Shown here piece after piece: positions 1 through 56,361 of a DNA stretch of 64,000 nucleotides. The stretch is taken from contig DAOUJJ010000011.1 of assembly GCA_034422835.1 (NCBI GenBank), forward strand, positions 2,942-66,941, in the 5' to 3' direction. The notes under the pieces are model-generated. The model was given only the letters and a program-made list of their open reading frames with translations, was not told where the DNA came from and did no database searches. The position numbers were made by a program, and so were the translations under genes. The number at the start of each line of letters is the position of its first letter. The stretch's first letter is position 1. Source of the stretch: Dehalococcoidia bacterium. GTDB lineage: Bacteria > Chloroflexota > Dehalococcoidia > UBA6926.

Positions 1-333
1 GGTATTTGCGCGTGGCCTCCAACCCATACCGGACAGCGTTAGGTTGGCCGAGCCAATCAGAATGGTTTCGTCAAATCGATAATATTTGGCATGCAACGTT
101 GGATGCAGCAGAAATTGACCGCCCTGATCGAGGACAATTTGTCGGCACTCCAAGTCTGATGCCCCAAGCGCCAAATCTTGGGGTTTCCAACGAGTGATAC
201 AGACTAGCTGTGCCGTAGGCGCGAGATTGGTCAACAACTGAATGAGCGCATCAGCTTTAATATAGGGCGCTGCCACAGTCAACGTTTCTGCAGTCGAGAT
301 GGCTGCAAGCAACTCACGACTGACGTTATACAT
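1..333 (-). CDS. Phospholipase D-family (HKD) nuclease, 5' part only (runs off the left edge; not in the ORF track)
   Basis: Hand translation from ATG at 333: MYNVSRELLAAISTAETLTVAAPYIKADAL...LHPTLHAKYYRFDETILIGSANLTLSGMGW, 111 codons with no stop. HxK(x4)D...GSxN motif. The ATG overlaps the last codons and stop (326-328) of the GHKL gene. Confidence 0.8.
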   Translation of the reverse strand, partial: MYNVSRELLAAISTAETLTVAAPYIKADALIQLLTNLAPTAQLVCITRWKPQDLALGASDLECRQIVLDQGGQFLLHPTLHAKYYRFDETILIGSANLTLSGMGWRPRANT

Positions 334-2191
334 CCGACGGAATGTCGCCTACTTGACGTCGCTCTAGGAATCTGTTGACGTACCTGCCCCAATCGTTCGC
401 GACTCGCTGAACCTCACGGCGCTTTGCGTCAGGTGCTGCATAGTCCTCCATTTGGGCCCATCCAAGCAAGAGCAATCTAACGATCACGGCTGCGGACCAC
501 AGAGGGTCCCCCGACACATCGACATCTGCGTTGTTCAGTTTGTCTTCAATAAGGCTAATGTGGCGATATAATTCATGATTCATGTTGAGTCCCACGTGAA
601 GGGTTCCGGCGATTGACTCGACATCGAACATCTCGTCCCCACGTAAGTTCTTTGCCGCAAAATGAAATATGCGTCGCTTTTCGATTGTCTCGTTAGCCAG
701 TTTTTCGGCAGCCTCTGCAGACTGTCCTTGCTCCGTAAAGGCTTTAGCAAGGATATCCCTTCGCTCTGACTCGGAAGTTGTCTCTCGTTCCACATCGGTA
801 GTAGACCGCTGTTCTCGACCTTGGTCTATTTCCTCAATGTGGACATCTGACGCATTCTGTTCGGCCTCTTCTGCGGGCGTGGCAGGGCCACTTGGTTTCG
901 GCTTAGGTCTCCTCATGTTGTCATACATGGTGTCAATGCGCGCACGCATCGACCTAATCCGCCGCATTATCGATTCAACTAGACGATACATCTCGTCATC
1001 GTCCAGCATTTGCTCTTCCAAGGTTGCTTGTCGATTTTGTTCAGTACCACTGAGATCTCTAACAGCTTGAGTAAAATTCGCAACCATTTGTTTGTTGTGA
1101 TCAACACCAAAAAACTCATCAAGTCCGCGGCCGAATTCCACTTGCACGCCCCACCAACGATTCTGGGGTTCGTTGGATTCTCCACCCAAGCGTCGAAACC
1201 GCTCTTCGAGGAGAATCTCGCGGCCCTCACGGAGCACGGATACACCAATGTTGCGTCCAGCATGTCGCCCGTAGTTGGTAGCGCCAGGATTCCTACCAAC
1301 AGAGAGCTCTGGCTCTAATACATCCGCCTTTACAAGGGAATACCTGACTGTCACTTTCTGTTCTGTGCCATCTACAACAACAAGATGTTCGTCGGAGTCC
1401 TCCTCTATGAACATGGGGGATTCGTTCCACGGGGCAGGAGTAGTCGACGGGAACATAAGGTACATAGGGTCGTTAGGAACGAATGCAGTTTCAAAATTCG
1501 GCTCGCGCGGAGAAACAGACAGAAAGCTACTGCCACGGATTCGACAGAGCCTCTGATCTAACCACATCCGGTGAATTCTTCCAATTTCTCTTTGGCAATG
1601 CTCAATAACGGTGCGACCCTGCCGCCATTTGACCTTGTCAAGGTTAGTCCACACGACAAGCGTACCTGATCTGCTTTCCCAAATCTTAGAGTCTGCTGCC
1701 TGCAACCACCTCTCGGGTATTGGGGTGGCATTGTCGGGAATCGGTACTTGATGATCACCTGCCTCAATCTGGTCAGCGTCTATATAATTATGCAAACAAG
1801 AATCTATACCGTCCTGCCAAGTCCAGACGTCTACTCTCTTGCACTGCGACATCGACGCGGTGGGTAGCCCCATGCCGTACTTGCCTATCCCTCTACGTGC
1901 GAAGTACTTAGCTGTCTGACCAAATTTCAAGGCGTTAAACAACGTTGTAAAGTCCATGCCATTACCGTTGTCCACAACTGCCAAGGCTTCAAGCCCAACT
2001 CTTTTCCTCTGCTGGACTAAATCAGCCGATTCAGCACAAAGTAACTCTACCTGCCCGGCTCCTGCCTCAATCGAGTTATCTATCAACTCAGCTATGGCAT
2101 AGGCAGAGTTGTTATATCGGCTATCCCTTAGCGCCCTGACCGTGAAATAGCCATCGAATAATCTTCGATCTAGGTCGTCAGTATCAATCAT
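326..2191 (-). CDS. GHKL (Hsp90/MutL/MORC-like) ATPase
   Basis: Bergerat-fold motifs AIAELIDNSIEA, VVDNGNGM, GIGKYGMG, SGTLVVW; charged helical C-terminal region. Start placed at the ATG (2191) in ATGA overlap with the helicase stop, not the ORF-track 2287. Confidence 0.85.
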   Translation of the reverse strand: MIDTDDLDRRLFDGYFTVRALRDSRYNNSAYAIAELIDNSIEAGAGQVELLCAESADLVQQRKRVGLEALAVVDNGNGMDFTTLFNALKFGQTAKYFARRGIGKYGMGLPTASMSQCKRVDVWTWQDGIDSCLHNYIDADQIEAGDHQVPIPDNATPIPERWLQAADSKIWESRSGTLVVWTNLDKVKWRQGRTVIEHCQREIGRIHRMWLDQRLCRIRGSSFLSVSPREPNFETAFVPNDPMYLMFPSTTPAPWNESPMFIEEDSDEHLVVVDGTEQKVTVRYSLVKADVLEPELSVGRNPGATNYGRHAGRNIGVSVLREGREILLEERFRRLGGESNEPQNRWWGVQVEFGRGLDEFFGVDHNKQMVANFTQAVRDLSGTEQNRQATLEEQMLDDDEMYRLVESIMRRIRSMRARIDTMYDNMRRPKPKPSGPATPAEEAEQNASDVHIEEIDQGREQRSTTDVERETTSESERRDILAKAFTEQGQSAEAAEKLANETIEKRRIFHFAAKNLRGDEMFDVESIAGTLHVGLNMNHELYRHISLIEDKLNNADVDVSGDPLWSAAVIVRLLLLGWAQMEDYAAPDAKRREVQRVANDWGRYVNRFLERRQVGDIPSDV

Positions 2192-3441
2192 TTGGTTGAC
2201 CACAACGCCTCCCAGTTCTTGAATGCATCTGTCACCGAGCCGAACCCCGGCAGATTCATGTCCACCACTGTTAGTATTTCGGCCCACCTGGTTCCACCGA
2301 CATTTGGCCCGCGCAAGGCCCTTCCTACCATCTGTGAATACAGAACCAGGGATTTCGTTGGCCTAGCGATAATCACGCAAGTAGTCTTAGGGGCATCGAA
2401 TCCAGCTGTAAGTACGCCGTAATTCAAGATGATTCTGCCTTGAGCGGAGTCCTCTCTATACCGGCGTATTATTTCTGAACGTCTCTCCGGCGGCGTCTCC
2501 GCTGTTATCGCACTTGCATCAATGCCAATCACACGCAATAGGTCTTCGCACTTGTGAGCACTCTCGACTGACGGGCAAAAGACGATTACACGTCGGTGTC
2601 GTGCTATGGCCTCTTTTGCCCACTCCACGATCTTGCGGTTTCGTGCTTCATCCTGCCCCAATTTGTCCAGAATTTCTTTGGAATAATCGTCTTCTAGTGC
2701 GCTTTCTATCGGGACACCATCACCAGGAAATTCTCGCGTAACAAAGTGTGGCTCGGAGAGGTAGCCGCTAGCAATCAAATAAGTGACGGCATTGTCATGG
2801 CCTTGAGGGTCAATTGACACTTTTCTTTTCGCGAACATGTCCGCAAGAGTGTAGTCCTCATCACTCAATGTGGCCTGTCTGCCCGGAGTAGCAGTTAGTC
2901 CCAACAGTGGCGTTGCAGCGCCAATCAACTGCTCCGTCAAGAATGCATACGTTCGGGCAACAGCTTGGTGCGCCTCATCAAATACGACGCCGGCTGCCCT
3001 CTTAGCCAAGCGTGGGCTCCACACACTATCCCGGCGTGCAACACCCCACAATTTCGAAAGTCCCGCGACCAAGAAGCCTCCAGGCAAATCTCCTAGATCT
3101 TGTTGATGTTCGCCCCAGTAGTGGCTTACTGTCGCTTCTCTGGTGCCCAAGTGTCTCCAAGCTCTTTCCAATGCCTCTGCCGCTTGCTCGCAGAGCTCCT
3201 CGGTGGAGGCCAGCCAAATGACCAAGGCATCCTTTTCATCGCGACCATTGAGCATATGGCACGCGACATGAGTGGCTATCCGCGTCTTACCGGCGCCGGT
3301 TGGTAAGTGCGCCACAACGCGACGCTCAGGCATTTCGAGCGCCGCCAGAATGTCACGGTAGACTTGGCGTTGGTAGGGATGTAGGCCGTAGGCAGGCTCT
3401 ACCGTAGAGGTATCAGACGCCACAGTGTCCTTCGCATTCAT
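2188..3441 (-). CDS. Superfamily 2 DEAD/DEAH (ResIII-like) helicase
   Basis: Q-motif LHPYQ, Walker A LPTGAGKT, DEAH, GLTAT, VLTAGFDAP, QMVGRALR. Start uncertain (3423-3459); overlaps the upstream stop. Confidence 0.9.
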   Translation of the reverse strand: MNAKDTVASDTSTVEPAYGLHPYQRQVYRDILAALEMPERRVVAHLPTGAGKTRIATHVACHMLNGRDEKDALVIWLASTEELCEQAAEALERAWRHLGTREATVSHYWGEHQQDLGDLPGGFLVAGLSKLWGVARRDSVWSPRLAKRAAGVVFDEAHQAVARTYAFLTEQLIGAATPLLGLTATPGRQATLSDEDYTLADMFAKRKVSIDPQGHDNAVTYLIASGYLSEPHFVTREFPGDGVPIESALEDDYSKEILDKLGQDEARNRKIVEWAKEAIARHRRVIVFCPSVESAHKCEDLLRVIGIDASAITAETPPERRSEIIRRYREDSAQGRIILNYGVLTAGFDAPKTTCVIIARPTKSLVLYSQMVGRALRGPNVGGTRWAEILTVVDMNLPGFGSVTDAFKNWEALWSTK

Positions 3442-4288
3442 CCTCAAAGAGACCGTCATCCTCCAGTGTGCCCGCGGCGATTGCAGTTACCGCGCTTTCG
3501 AGCGGCTGCCGGGTTCTATGCAGATAGGGACGCCCTGCCAGAACTTGACGTACTGGGTTGCGCGTAGACTTGCGGAGCCAGCGATCAAATTTGACTGCTT
3601 CATCAAAGCTATCCGGCTCCATTTCCCACATTTCGCGCCAGTGGGCATCAGATCGATAAGGGCAAATGACACAAGCCGACCTAGGCAGATGTCGATCAGG
3701 GTATTCACTCTCAAACCAGTCGAGACAGTCCTGACGCGACATGCCGATGTCAATCAGCGGCCATTTATGCACCGTCCACGGCTCACGGCTTGGCTTCATT
3801 CGCAAAATCTCATCCGTTGAGATTCCGAGCCACATTTCTGCATGAGTGTTCTTCGGAAACGGGCGCCCGCGTTTTCCTCCAGCCCGTTCTCTAACCGCTC
3901 GGTGGATAGGCCGAATTTTATAGTGATTCGTGCATTGGCGGCGCAGAATGCCCGCCCCGCCATCGGGATTGGTAACGAACATTGGAACGTCAACAAAGTC
4001 ATGCCCGGACACAGTCTTGGCGCGCCTCAAATTTTCTTTGAGATTGCCATCACTCACCCGAATGAGTTCGAAATCAAGCTGTGTTTCCAGCCAATCCAGA
4101 TGCTGGTAAACATAGTCTGGTTCCCACCCGGTATCAGCGAATACCGCGATATCTGGTTTCTCATAGCCTGCATCGACAAGCCGCTGGTCACCTCGCGATA
4201 GGAGCAACGCAAGCACGGAGCTTTGGACTCCCGCGCCAAGGCTCAATGCTCTATAGGTCGCTACGCTACCCTGGTCAGGCATAATCAC
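3413..4288 (-). CDS. PAPS-reductase-like / PP-loop (adenine nucleotide alpha hydrolase) protein with Cys motifs
   Basis: PP-loop SLGAGVQS, FADTGWE, RQCTNHYKIRP, LGISTDE, SACVICPY, C-terminal ECEGHCGV; SD GGAGGTGA upstream (start 4288 or 4282). Confidence 0.8.
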   Translation of the reverse strand: MIMPDQGSVATYRALSLGAGVQSSVLALLLSRGDQRLVDAGYEKPDIAVFADTGWEPDYVYQHLDWLETQLDFELIRVSDGNLKENLRRAKTVSGHDFVDVPMFVTNPDGGAGILRRQCTNHYKIRPIHRAVRERAGGKRGRPFPKNTHAEMWLGISTDEILRMKPSREPWTVHKWPLIDIGMSRQDCLDWFESEYPDRHLPRSACVICPYRSDAHWREMWEMEPDSFDEAVKFDRWLRKSTRNPVRQVLAGRPYLHRTRQPLESAVTAIAAGTLEDDGLFEDECEGHCGV

Positions 4289-4798: not shown

Positions 4799-6451
4799 CT
4801 AGGCGTTCTCTTGCGCAAGCAGCCTGGCGGCCACAGTCGTCGCCTCATCACGCGTGCCCACGATTTGCTCCGGGGGGACTTGCCTGAGAGCCTCAAGAGC
4901 ATCGAGATTGCGTTCCGGCATACCCGACAGCCCCATCACGATGCAGTGCGTGTCCTGGATGGCGGCGGTCTCAATCAGCTGCTCAACCACCAGGGCTGCG
5001 CTTTCGTCGATGTAGACCGTATCAGAGAAATCCAGGATAACCACCTCATGCTCCCGGATGTCTTCACCGATGGTGTCAATGAGTTTGCCGGAGGATGCGA
5101 TGGTAAAGGTCCCACGCAGGGCCACAAGTCCGATCCTGGCCGTAAAGTCATCGAACTGTTCCTCATTGCCCTGTGTCCCAAAGAAAACCTGGTCCAGGAT
5201 GGGGACGGAGATAACGCTGTCAAGCTCAAGTCGCTCGAATTGGCGCGCGTTCGTCACAGCCGCGGCGATCATGCCCACGGCAACGGCGGCAACCAGGTCG
5301 ACGAACACCGTCAGTCCGAACGTGAGCAGCATCACCACCAGGTGCTCACGCTGCACCCGGAACATGCGGGTAACGAATCGCCAATCAATGGTATCGAGCG
5401 CCACCTTTACCAGGATTCCGGAGAGGACGGCGCTTGGAATCAACTCAACGTAGTTGCCGAACTGCATCACGATAATCGCAAGAATCGCGACGGCCAGCAC
5501 GCCGGAAACGAGGGTGGACCCGCCCGCGCGGATATTGGCGACCGTGTTTGGCGTGGCGCCGGCGCCGGGCAGGCCCCTGATGAACCCGGTGATGACGTTG
5601 CCGATGCCTTGCGCCAAAAGCTCCCTGCTCGGATCGTTTCGCGAGCGAGTCATTGAATCCGCGGCAAGCGCAGTCAGCAGTGTGTCAACGGACCCAACGA
5701 GCGCGATGACCAACGCGGGCTCAGTGGCCCTCACGATGAAACCCAGGTCGATGTACGGCAGCTGGAAAAGCGGAATATCGGTAGGTACGGCCCCAACGGA
5801 TGGGGCGTCTTTCAGCCAGATGAGGCTTATGGCGGTTCCCACTGCCAACGCGACCAGCGTCGGCGGCAAATGCCTCTGGAATCGCCTGGGCCAGAGCAGG
5901 GCCGCTGCAAGCGTTATGAGAGCGATGAGCAGGGCGCTGCTTTGGAACTCGCCCATGAGTTCCGGAATGTCCGCAATCGTGCTAAACAGACCGCCAACAC
6001 CTACATGCCCGCCCAAGAAGGGCTCCAACTGCCCCACGATGATGATTACGCCCACGCCGGTCATGAACCCTGATATGACGGAGTACGGGGTGTATGTGAC
6101 GAAACGTCCGATTCGCAGCAGGCCGAACAGGACCTGGATCAGTCCGGCCATGATGACGATAGTGAAAGCCTCAGAGATGTTGTCCGCGTGCGCCGCGACA
6201 ATGACCGCCATGGCCACCGTCATCGAGCCTGTTGGGCCGGATATCAGGGATCTGGTGCCGCCGAACACAGCGGCAAAGAAACCGACGGAGATAGCGCCGT
6301 AAATGCCGGCGGCAGGACCCAGACCGGCCGCGATGCCGAACGCGAGCGCAACCGGCAGCCCAACGACGGCTGCCGTAACGCCCCCCACAACATCCCCTCG
6401 GAGAGATTGCAGACTATAGTGCCGATCTGACCCCAAAAGACGTTGAAGCAC
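4799..6451 (-). CDS. SulP-family inorganic anion transporter with STAS domain
   Basis: GDVVGGVTAAVVGLPVALAFG, multiple TM segments, ELLAQGIGN, C-terminal STAS (VILDFSDTVYIDESA). Confidence 0.9.
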   Translation of the reverse strand: MLQRLLGSDRHYSLQSLRGDVVGGVTAAVVGLPVALAFGIAAGLGPAAGIYGAISVGFFAAVFGGTRSLISGPTGSMTVAMAVIVAAHADNISEAFTIVIMAGLIQVLFGLLRIGRFVTYTPYSVISGFMTGVGVIIIVGQLEPFLGGHVGVGGLFSTIADIPELMGEFQSSALLIALITLAAALLWPRRFQRHLPPTLVALAVGTAISLIWLKDAPSVGAVPTDIPLFQLPYIDLGFIVRATEPALVIALVGSVDTLLTALAADSMTRSRNDPSRELLAQGIGNVITGFIRGLPGAGATPNTVANIRAGGSTLVSGVLAVAILAIIVMQFGNYVELIPSAVLSGILVKVALDTIDWRFVTRMFRVQREHLVVMLLTFGLTVFVDLVAAVAVGMIAAAVTNARQFERLELDSVISVPILDQVFFGTQGNEEQFDDFTARIGLVALRGTFTIASSGKLIDTIGEDIREHEVVILDFSDTVYIDESAALVVEQLIETAAIQDTHCIVMGLSGMPERNLDALEALRQVPPEQIVGTRDEATTVAARLLAQENA

Positions 6452-53947: not shown

Positions 53948-54066
53948 TCCCGGTGACTCTGGCGAAGCGGACCCACCCGTTCCCATCCCGAACACGGAAG
54001 TGAAACGTTTCAGCGCCGACGATACTGGAGGGGCAGCCCTCTGTGGAAAATAGGTCGTTGCCGGGG
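53948..54066 (+). rRNA. rrf: 5S rRNA, unlinked from 16S/23S
   Basis: CCCGGTGAC...CCCATCCCGAACACGGAAGTGAA...GCGCCGACGATACT...GGAAAATAGGTCGTTGCCGGGG; terminal helix closes. Confidence 0.95.
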
Positions 54067-56286: not shown

Positions 56287-56361
56287 GCGGGCGTAACTCA
56301 GTGGTAGAGTGTCTGCTTCCCAAGCAGAATGTCGTGGGTTCGATCCCCATCGCCCGCTCCA
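56287..56361 (+). tRNA. tRNA-Gly(CCC)
   Basis: Full cloverleaf GCGGGCG/CGCCCGC, anticodon loop TTCCCAA, TTCGATC loop, encoded CCA. Confidence 0.97.

Follow-up and report, generated by a model that had tools for sequence, protein, structure and literature searches.

Introduction

The characterised members of the 3'-phosphoadenosine 5'-phosphosulfate (PAPS) reductase superfamily that are directed at DNA, namely DndC, SspD, BrxP and TdpC, all make phosphorothioates, and an ATP-pyrophosphatase activity has been attributed to DndC and SspD in published work. The restriction branches linked to phosphorothioates are given in a 2025 review as only DndFGH/SspFGH, SspE and PbeABCD, and fusions of an HKD nuclease with a superfamily 2 (SF2) helicase, as in PbeA, count as restriction components of phosphorothioation loci and sometimes lie downstream of the phosphorothioation genes (PMC10853773). 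Operons in which a MORC protein (GHKL+S5) is joined by an SFII helicase and a nuclease, of the HKD or another type, were predicted to be restriction-modification (R-M)-like by Iyer, Abhiman & Aravind in 2008 (PMC2292703). The subject of this article is a cassette of four genes, at positions 1-4288 of a 64,000-nucleotide (nt) stretch of DNA from a Dehalococcoidia bacterium (the window; contig DAOUJJ010000011.1, positions 2,942-66,941), in which a PAPS-reductase-like protein, here called the writer candidate or writer, is encoded together with a triad of an SF2 helicase, a MORC-type GHKL ATPase and a phospholipase D (PLD) nuclease. On the evidence of the sequences we lean, if only a little, towards reading the cassette as a self-contained two-module modification-restriction system in which one gene supplies the writer and three proteins form the restriction complex, phosphorothioate being the most likely mark.

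Comparison with the closest described systems

The proteins of the window were searched by profile against Pfam, PADLOC v2 and NCBIfam and by sequence against the PDB, and AlphaFold2 (AF2) models were compared with Foldseek. The gene combination of the cassette is shared by no named defence system. PADLOC and NCBIfam give no match at the level of a system, only weak matches to single proteins with nothing over the NCBIfam cut-offs, and the searchable literature on PAPS reductases with MORC, GHKL, HATPase or PLD, on DUF6339 or on PDC-M33 holds no description of the cassette. What is already known is that the sister clade of the writer is the PADLOC candidate PDC-M33C and that TdpC provides a precedent for a single-gene phosphorothioate writer, the synthesis needing only one gene, tdpC (PMC12914056).

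The Ssp systems (SspABCD-SspE/FGH) also pair an enzyme of the PAPS reductase family with a separate restriction module, and in cultured strains the same triad is found beside SspBCD, but the cassette is without SspB (DUF4007) and SspC, and its writer is 23% identical to SspD with another PP-loop motif. No SspB or SspC family member is present within 10 kb on either side of the cassette on the source contig, for which the full record is an 81.6-kb metagenome scaffold (L001) that encodes the GHKL protein of the window exactly. The SspC proteins of Hymenobacter and Roseobacter have no tblastn match in either the window or L001, and neither SspB nor SspC is a conserved neighbour at any of 34 loci that carry the four genes. 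The Dnd systems (DndABCDE-FGH) differ in that the cassette has neither a DndC match nor the DndD/DndE core, and DndD- or DndE-like genes are absent from the cassette and its flanks. Within 10 kb of either side there is no methyltransferase or cysteine desulfurase, and tblastn for sspC-, dndB- and cysteine-desulfurase-like genes is negative across the 64-kb window.

The triad is unlike SspE (DUF262-DUF1524), with no PADLOC SspE match. An identification as SspFGH was rejected, given that the published account of SspF as a Walker-A protein and SspH as an FtsK-like protein (PMC8092258) does not fit an SF2 helicase, a GHKL ATPase and a PLD nuclease. As the triad is unlike SspFGH and is absent from the branches listed in the 2025 review, it appears to be an unnamed restriction branch, one whose partners are SspBCD, PDC-M33ABC or, here, a lone short PAPS-type enzyme.

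PbeABCD/CxC-ABC and the SauUSI-type enzymes likewise use an HKD nuclease and an SF2 helicase as a cutting motor, and the helicase of the cassette matches PbeA and SauUSI, while the fold of its PLD nuclease matches SauUSI. In the cassette, however, the nuclease and helicase are separate proteins, a MORC-type GHKL ATPase takes the place of the CxC ABC ATPase PbeC, and there is neither a DndE-like PbeD nor a SauUSI-type target-recognition domain. The MORC operons predicted in 2008 differ in having DNA methylases as partners, a PP-loop/PAPS-reductase partner not being described there (PMC2292703).

With the Tdp system (TdpABC; An et al., Nat Chem Biol 2025) the likeness is one of logic only. Both are hypercompact systems with a single gene of the PAPS reductase family as the sole modification gene, as holds for the window and for each of the 29 minimal cassettes, and with an ATP-driven restriction module joined to it; Tdp has three genes as opposed to four in the cassette. 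No entry labelled Tdp is found among the PADLOC and NCBIfam matches or in the PDB sequence searches with all four proteins, of which those with the helicase and GHKL proteins yielded only helicases of the RadD/XPB/SauUSI type and MORC2. The restriction part of TdpABC is reportedly composed of a hexameric translocase, TdpA, and a nuclease, TdpB. PDC-M33 is close to the cassette in another way, in that the writer resembles the PAPS domain of M33C and that five PDC-M33 loci carry the same triad, but M33A, M33B and the DUF6339 domain are lacking from the window cassette (tblastn negative in the window and L001), and the GHKL protein does not match the PADLOC M33A model. The cassette thus falls outside Ssp, Dnd, PbeABCD and PDC-M33, as their defining partners are absent and the writer is of a different subfamily.

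An earlier note on this DNA, made from the sequence alone, had anticipated much of this: an architecture outside the named systems, a PAPS-like protein unlike canonical DndC, and no visible ssp or dnd partner, methyltransferase or cysteine desulfurase, all of which agree with the searches above. Its domain calls (PAPS/PP-loop, SF2 helicase, MORC-like ATPase, PLD) are backed by Pfam, PADLOC and NCBIfam. Its proposal of a single-gene writer with a restriction module gains support from the lone writer homologues of plasmids and phages, from the triad beside SspBCD and from the lack of neighbouring ssp, dnd, methyltransferase or cysteine desulfurase genes, and the co-occurrence of the four genes elsewhere, on which that proposal depended, is borne out in the same order in some 30 genomes from many phyla with unrelated flanks.

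The writer candidate

The writer (289 aa; window 3413-4282, minus strand, with an alternative GTG start at 4288) is a PP-loop protein of the CysH-DndC superfamily and matches the phage 'PAPS reductase' family phrog_424 with an E value of 3.8e-44. Against Pfam PAPS_reduct it scores 19.6 bits (E 1e-3), which is below the 22.5-bit cut-off, and against PADLOC SspD it gives a partial match to one model (E 6e-11). No CysH match is found in NCBIfam, no DndC match in PADLOC or NCBIfam even at E values up to 10, and no detectable relative in the PDB sequence search. The motifs of the protein are SLGAGVQSS, which is a degenerate PP-loop, FADTGWEP, RRQC117T..YKIRPI, GISTDE..R, SAC204VIC207PY and a C-terminal EC283EGHC287GV, with the PP-loop residues and five cysteines being invariant in the cassette, PDC-M33C, plasmid and phage homologues. 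We take these motifs to parallel those of the adenosine 5'-phosphosulfate (APS)/PAPS reductases, such that SLGAGVQSS would correspond to SFGIQAA, FADTGWEP to the DTG motif, QCT..YKIRPI to CCxxRKVxPL, CVIC to CxxC and the C-terminal ECEGxCG to ECGLH. The AF2 model, with a predicted local distance difference test score (pLDDT) of 70.5, has PP-loop enzymes as its Foldseek matches, among them GMP synthetase, the [4Fe-4S]-dependent sulfur transferase LarE and CysH.

When compared with the SspD proteins of three SspBCD loci the writer is 23% identical to two (E 1e-8 and 2e-7) and the third is undetectable; these SspD proteins carry a canonical SGGKDS PP-loop where the writer has SLGAGVQS. The absence of a DndC match, an identity to SspD of at most 23% and the different PP-loop led to the rejection of DndC and SspD as identities for the writer. 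Nor is it a typical CysH, as it scores under the Pfam cut-off and its contexts are restriction genes, plasmid leading-region genes and phage replication genes.

The family is large, with more than 6,600 close relatives of the writer in the database, many at 64-70% identity. Clustering at 50% gives 1,155 representatives (E <= 1e-30), and among the representatives listed most are of 260-300 aa and a subset are fusions of ~540 aa. Among the cassette proteins the writer has the highest median identity, 75% as against 69, 68 and 55% for the others.

The helicase, MORC-type ATPase and PLD nuclease

The helicase (window 2188-3459, minus strand; 381-423 aa depending on the start codon) is a DNA helicase or translocase of the RadD/Rad25/SauUSI-like type with the Pfam domains ResIII, DEAD and Helicase_C. 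Motifs I (LPTGAGKT), II (DEAH), III (TATPGR) and VI (QMVGRALR) are at least 95% conserved in 42 homologues. It matches NCBIfam RadD at 1.4e-26, under the cut-off of that model, RadD (4e-17) and SauUSI (1.6e-8) in the PDB, where it also resembles XPB-type proteins, and PbeA (9e-16) and mREase_IV (1.3e-14) in PADLOC.

The GHKL ATPase (621 aa; window 326-2191, minus strand) matches Pfam HATPase_c_3 at 6.5e-22, and its best PDB sequence match is MORC2 (1.4e-5). The N-box (AELIDNSIEAG), G1 (DNGNGM), G2 (GIGKYGMG) and an S5-like segment (GVSVLREGREI) are conserved in 39 homologues, beyond which there is a charged, poorly conserved linker and then a small conserved C-terminal region. A resemblance to MzaB is limited to the N-terminus (PADLOC 1.5e-15). 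In its sequence the protein has the features by which prokaryotic MORCs are recognised, that is the GHKL motifs, the S5 signature GhXhhpXXRhl and an operon shared with SFII helicase and nuclease genes.

The PLD nuclease is encoded on the minus strand at window 1-333, where the first 111 of its 284 codons lie, and the whole gene is at L001:11859-12713. Its motif LH81AK83YYRFD..IGSANLT leaves the HKD signature HxK..D..GSxN intact, with no variation among 39 homologues. The N-terminal part is a PLD domain of the Nuc type with a single-copy fold, and a helical domain makes up the C-terminal part. The protein matches Pfam PLDc_2 at 7.9e-5 and PADLOC DrmC at 1e-6; its AF2 model (pLDDT 89.8) has the PLD domain of SauUSI as the top Foldseek match, followed by NucT and Zucchini. 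For the helical domain Foldseek gave nothing informative, including no fold like that of a sulfur-binding domain, and the PDB sequence search with the PLD protein gave nothing meaningful. All of the triad proteins keep their catalytic motifs (38-42 homologues each).

Co-occurrence, spread and two-module evolution

Relatives of the writer were scanned with one genome per species, the best 80 loci being kept so that the sample is biased toward the kin of the window, and the presence of the four genes at each locus was scored by tblastn with the four window proteins. An identical four-gene order is found at 34 loci, always with the PAPS-like gene first, and as these are independent loci the arrangement is not a matter of chance. 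They comprise 29 minimal cassettes (~30 genomes) and five PDC-M33 loci. Where the writer is at least 62% identical nearly every locus has all four genes, the exceptions being contig ends and two disrupted copies.

The hosts span some eight phyla and include Chloroflexota (Dehalococcoidia, Caldilineaceae, Tepidiformaceae), Latescibacterota, Acidobacteria, Gemmatimonadetes, Alphaproteobacteria, Rhodothermaceae, Binatia and Entotheonella. The flanks of the cassette are unrelated between genomes, with one syntenic locus (L002) as the sole exception, and the cassette is horizontally mobile. Judging by their names, many of the host metagenome-assembled genomes (MAGs) may come from marine-sponge microbiomes.

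Identity matrices of the helicase, GHKL and PLD proteins correlate with one another at r 0.79-0.95, while those of the writer and the triad correlate within the clade at 0.43-0.55. A tight triad with a loose writer is the pattern that would be expected if the modification (M) and restriction (R) modules swap independently, and loose co-evolution of M and R is normal for R-M systems. The syntenic relative L002 adds to this picture. Its flanks are 88% identical to those of the source contig at the nt level and it has a cassette at the same site, with the protein identity to the window cassette being 91% for the writer, ~70% for the helicase, ~40% for GHKL and 60-83% for PLD. In the alignment of L001:9900-12300 with L002:12100-14400 the divergent stretch (window ~2290 to the left edge) takes in the GHKL gene together with the neighbouring ends of helicase and PLD, with a protein identity of only ~40-70%. 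Because the flanks are so similar and yet GHKL is only ~40% identical, the central part of the cassette has either been exchanged or evolved extremely fast; the comparison points to allelic replacement, or to extreme divergence or hypervariation, of the restriction core. Such replacement or rapid divergence is typical of the specificity genes of defence systems.

Relatives of the two modules elsewhere

On plasmids of cultured strains a homologous triad adjoins an SspD-type PAPS-reductase gene on each. On plasmid A of Trichormus variabilis ATCC 29413, whose triad is 42, 35 and 30% identical to that of the window, a large upstream gene lies next to the SspD-type gene and the triad. Roseobacter litoralis pROLI83, Hymenobacter and Aminobacter pUSP2 each have a large SspC-like ATPase gene next to the triad context, and at the first two of these loci the annotation includes SspB (DUF4007). 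DndB-like/DGQHR genes occur at the triad loci of Trichormus, Geminocystis and Roseobacter, and a cysteine desulfurase at those of Trichormus and Geminocystis. Agrobacterium pAtCFBP7129b (L088:5454-9856) has a helicase-GHKL pair with a 360-aa hypothetical protein where PLD would be, downstream of which are two hypothetical genes and an FtsK/SpoIIIE-domain gene.

The writer family also forms the C-terminal half of the ~540-aa DUF6339 fusions that are PADLOC candidate PDC-M33C. Beyond its own clade the PAPS domain of PDC-M33C is the nearest relative of the writer; the match between the writer and the C-terminal half of M33C at L043 extends over 282 residues with 48.6% identity, and the invariant residues are common to both. 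Upstream of PDC-M33C are PDC-M33A, a different GHKL ATPase, and PDC-M33B, a 283-aa protein. PDC-M33 is common in Dehalococcoidia and related MAGs (L037-L081; for instance L043:6438-17695, L047:10936-12731 and L039:10837-12654). The slot that follows PDC-M33 holds the helicase-GHKL-PLD triad at five loci, as in the window, and elsewhere PbeA/PbeC-like genes with a sigma-70-r4 protein, a DndB-like DGQHR gene with a small partner, GmrSD/Orf5/SspE-like DUF262-DUF1524 proteins or a histidine-kinase-like ATPase. These swappable downstream modules suggest that PDC-M33 may itself be the modification module of a multi-branch system.

Outside such loci, writer homologues occur alone. They are 40-45% identical, retain the invariant residues and share family, length, PP-loop and cysteines with the window gene, but they are solitary in replication or leading-region modules, whereas the window gene heads a restriction-type operon. 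A lone 288-aa gene is present in 193 plasmid records. On the two Ti-type plasmids inspected (Agrobacterium and Roseibium) it directly follows an ArdC-like (DUF1738/zincin) gene near traG/traA, and the two genes are a candidate leading-region anti-restriction pair. At L082:6036-7831 and L084:6036-7828, from Roseibium and Agrobacterium plasmids, the homologue is translationally coupled to the ArdC-like gene. In the Mesorhizobium phage-plasmid MesoLjLa5 (L083:6494-7813) the homologue is the C-terminal 270 aa of a 439-aa open reading frame, whose N-terminus has a cytosine-5 methyltransferase motif I (FAGMGG) and which is surrounded by phage replication genes. The protein may be a fusion with two modification activities, or the annotation may contain a frameshift.

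At least 53 phage records contain homologues (Pelagibacter, Geobacillus, Thermus P23-77, Salisaeta, Nocardia, Synechococcus and many Mycobacterium abscessus prophages), and in all three phages inspected the gene lies within a DNA-replication or recombination module. Orphan protective DNA-modification enzymes are typical of such replication and leading-region positions, where genes for sulfate assimilation are not expected. The phrog_424 genes are usually annotated as cysH-like auxiliary metabolic genes. Two leads from phages were discarded. JSS1_004, a lead for a 'PAPS reductase that evades Dnd', proved to be a kinase, and the PAPS-Dam fusion of a Vibrio phage (Piel et al.) is absent from the 53 phage records that match the writer and so serves as an analogy only.

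Proposed mechanism and alternative explanations

How might the four proteins work together? The gene content, the intact catalytic motifs, the strict co-occurrence, the co-evolution in two modules and the repeated linkage of the triad to phosphorothioation genes are observed, and what we infer from them is how DNA is marked chemically, in which direction the mark discriminates and that the cassette acts against phages. In module M the 289-aa PP-loop enzyme would mark the host's own DNA, most likely with phosphorothioate by analogy with DndC, SspD, BrxP and especially TdpC. The backbone phosphate would be adenylated and sulfur then delivered to it, the sulfur presumably being drawn from a housekeeping cysteine desulfurase by way of the Fe-S-type cysteines and the C-terminal ECxGxCG tail of the writer. 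This adenylation route is reportedly that of TdpC. In module R the helicase, the MORC-type GHKL ATPase and the PLD nuclease would act as one complex, in which the GHKL dimer may clamp the DNA, the SF2 motor translocate along it and the HKD nuclease, dimerised to form one active site, cut DNA that is without the mark. Host DNA would be spared through the mark blocking loading, translocation or nuclease activation. As to polarity, the mark could block the restriction module, as it does with DndFGH and SspFGH, or stimulate it, as with SspE.

Several observations weigh against this scheme. The transfer of function from SspD and DndC is weak, as the kinship to SspD is remote (23%) and a DndC match is absent, and the AF2 model obtained for this protein is of no more than moderate quality, with template modelling (TM) scores of 0.3-0.4 to its matches. 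Ssp needs SspB and SspC, and Dnd needs DndD and DndE, equivalents of which are absent from the cassette. As the 64-kb window has no cysteine desulfurase, one must suppose that sulfur is supplied from another part of the genome. Finally, the pAtCFBP7129b helicase-GHKL pair has no annotated PAPS-like gene within ~7 kb. This pair may be a writer-less or differently partnered variant, and because of it the restriction module may function without a linked writer.

One alternative, which is unlikely, keeps the two-module logic and replaces phosphorothioate with another ATP-activated DNA modification, for instance a different backbone or base adduct formed by way of an adenylated intermediate, that would be read by the triad. 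The writer family is indeed distant from DndC and SspD, with motifs closer to those of CysH than to the SGGKDS-type PP-loop of SspD, no dedicated cysteine desulfurase is seen near the ~30 minimal cassettes (where the flanking genes were clustered, not annotated), and PP-loop enzymes carry out many adenylation-dependent chemistries, as the GMP synthetase and LarE fold matches recall. On the other side, every characterised DNA-directed member of the superfamily makes phosphorothioates, the partners of the triad and of PDC-M33 are linked to phosphorothioation (SspBCD, DndB-like, PbeA/C-like, SspE-like and cysteine desulfurase), and the five invariant cysteines suit the handling of sulfur.

It is also possible, though decidedly doubtful, that the triad stands alone as a split ATP-dependent restriction enzyme of the SauUSI/PbeA type against foreign, possibly modified DNA, with the PAPS-like protein as an accessory that acts in sensing or regulation, depletes nucleotides or PAPS as an effector, or guards against counter-defence by phages. 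The matches of the helicase and PLD protein to SauUSI, a modification-dependent type IV enzyme, and of the helicase to PADLOC mREase_IV fit such a role, as does the related helicase-GHKL unit of pAtCFBP7129b. The loose co-evolution of writer and triad can be cited in its favour as well, but it is ordinary in R-M systems. Against an accessory role, conservation is highest in the writer (median 75% versus 55-69%), whose gene always comes first in the operon, and a lone writer beside ArdC-like genes or in phage replication modules suits a protective mark better than a sensor. Least credible of all is a housekeeping origin, in which an assimilatory PAPS/APS reductase near a sulfate permease would adjoin a set of DNA repair genes (a RadD-like helicase, a MutL-like ATPase and a nuclease). 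This very improbable account draws on a co-oriented SulP/STAS gene just upstream (window 4799-6451), on the CysH-like motifs and fold matches of the writer and on RadD as the best named relative of the helicase. However, SulP is absent from the syntenic L002 site and the flanks differ in all other genomes, the GC content is foreign and the spread crosses phyla, the NCBIfam CysH and RadD models remain below cut-off, and at other loci the triad is accompanied by Ssp, DndB and Pbe genes.

The reading of the cassette as a two-module modification-restriction system leads to a wider proposal, which we regard as tentative and somewhat short of probable. A 'PAPS reductase' of the phrog_424 type may suffice by itself to mark DNA; in bacteria it would provide the self-mark for the helicase-MORC-PLD complex, and its orphan copies would disguise the DNA of phages and conjugative plasmids.

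Gene layout and genomic context

The cassette was described in the earlier note as four minus-strand genes, each overlapping the next, in DNA more AT-rich than its flanks. All four genes are present and two of the junctions overlap, the helicase stop and GHKL start sharing 4 nt (ATGA) and the GHKL stop and PLD start sharing 8 nt (ATGTATAA), while the PAPS gene and the helicase overlap, by 11-47 nt, only if an upstream helicase start is used. The public helicase gene call begins at window 3333, which leaves a 79-nt gap to the PAPS gene; the upstream start is favoured because the conserved HPYQ segment of the homologues precedes the publicly called one. The difference in composition is confirmed, with a GC content of 0.50-0.55 in the cassette and 0.60-0.65 in either flank. 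The suggestion that the operon might continue leftward did not hold once the contig was extended. The PLD gene passes the left edge of the window by 522 nt and is followed in L001, after 23 nt, by a glyoxalase-family gene and then by thiolase-type genes, all with host-like GC. As only the remainder of the PLD gene lies past the edge, the cassette consists of exactly four genes.

Upstream of the cassette are an HbpS-like gene and the gene for the SulP sulfate transporter. The latter is missing from the syntenic position in the close relative (L002:9472-9543), where the cassette is kept, and the proximity of SulP to a 'PAPS reductase' is therefore considered coincidental. Such a pairing could trick automatic annotation into a sulfur-assimilation cluster.

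A search for att-like direct or inverted repeats at the borders of the island found none that was convincing, no tRNA adjoins the island, and a scan for sigma-70 promoters and terminators gave sites no commoner than chance. Some ~1.0-1.15 kb beyond the left edge (L001:13206-13345) there are two GC-rich direct repeats of 55 nt that are 98% identical; they lie 85 nt apart in the intergenic region after the glyoxalase-family gene. Further along the window a lone 5S rRNA gene is found at 53949-54066, with no 23S or 16S rRNA detected in the 64 kb, and a tRNA-Gly(CCC) lies at 56287-56361, ~2.2 kb downstream of the 5S gene. The rRNA genes of this genome appear to be unlinked.

Implications

If the two-module reading is true, the cassette would represent another family of phosphorothioate-type, or related, modification-restriction systems, with the smallest possible writer and a MORC-based restriction complex, and it would offer a tractable bacterial model for the action of MORC on DNA. 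The triad would be a further restriction branch of the Ssp-type systems, one that culturable strains carry, Trichormus variabilis ATCC 29413 among them. The multi-phylum spread of the cassette in MAGs, whose names suggest sponge symbionts, would amount to the sharing of defence genes inside one microbiome. A function would also be given to a widespread phage and plasmid gene that is now read as one of sulfur metabolism, together with a link to its cognate restriction machine. Were the wider proposal for the phrog_424-type writers to be true as well, their mark could be phosphorothioate or chemically new, and a viral 'metabolic' gene would become an epigenetic counter-defence gene, for which the cassette would be the cognate immune system.

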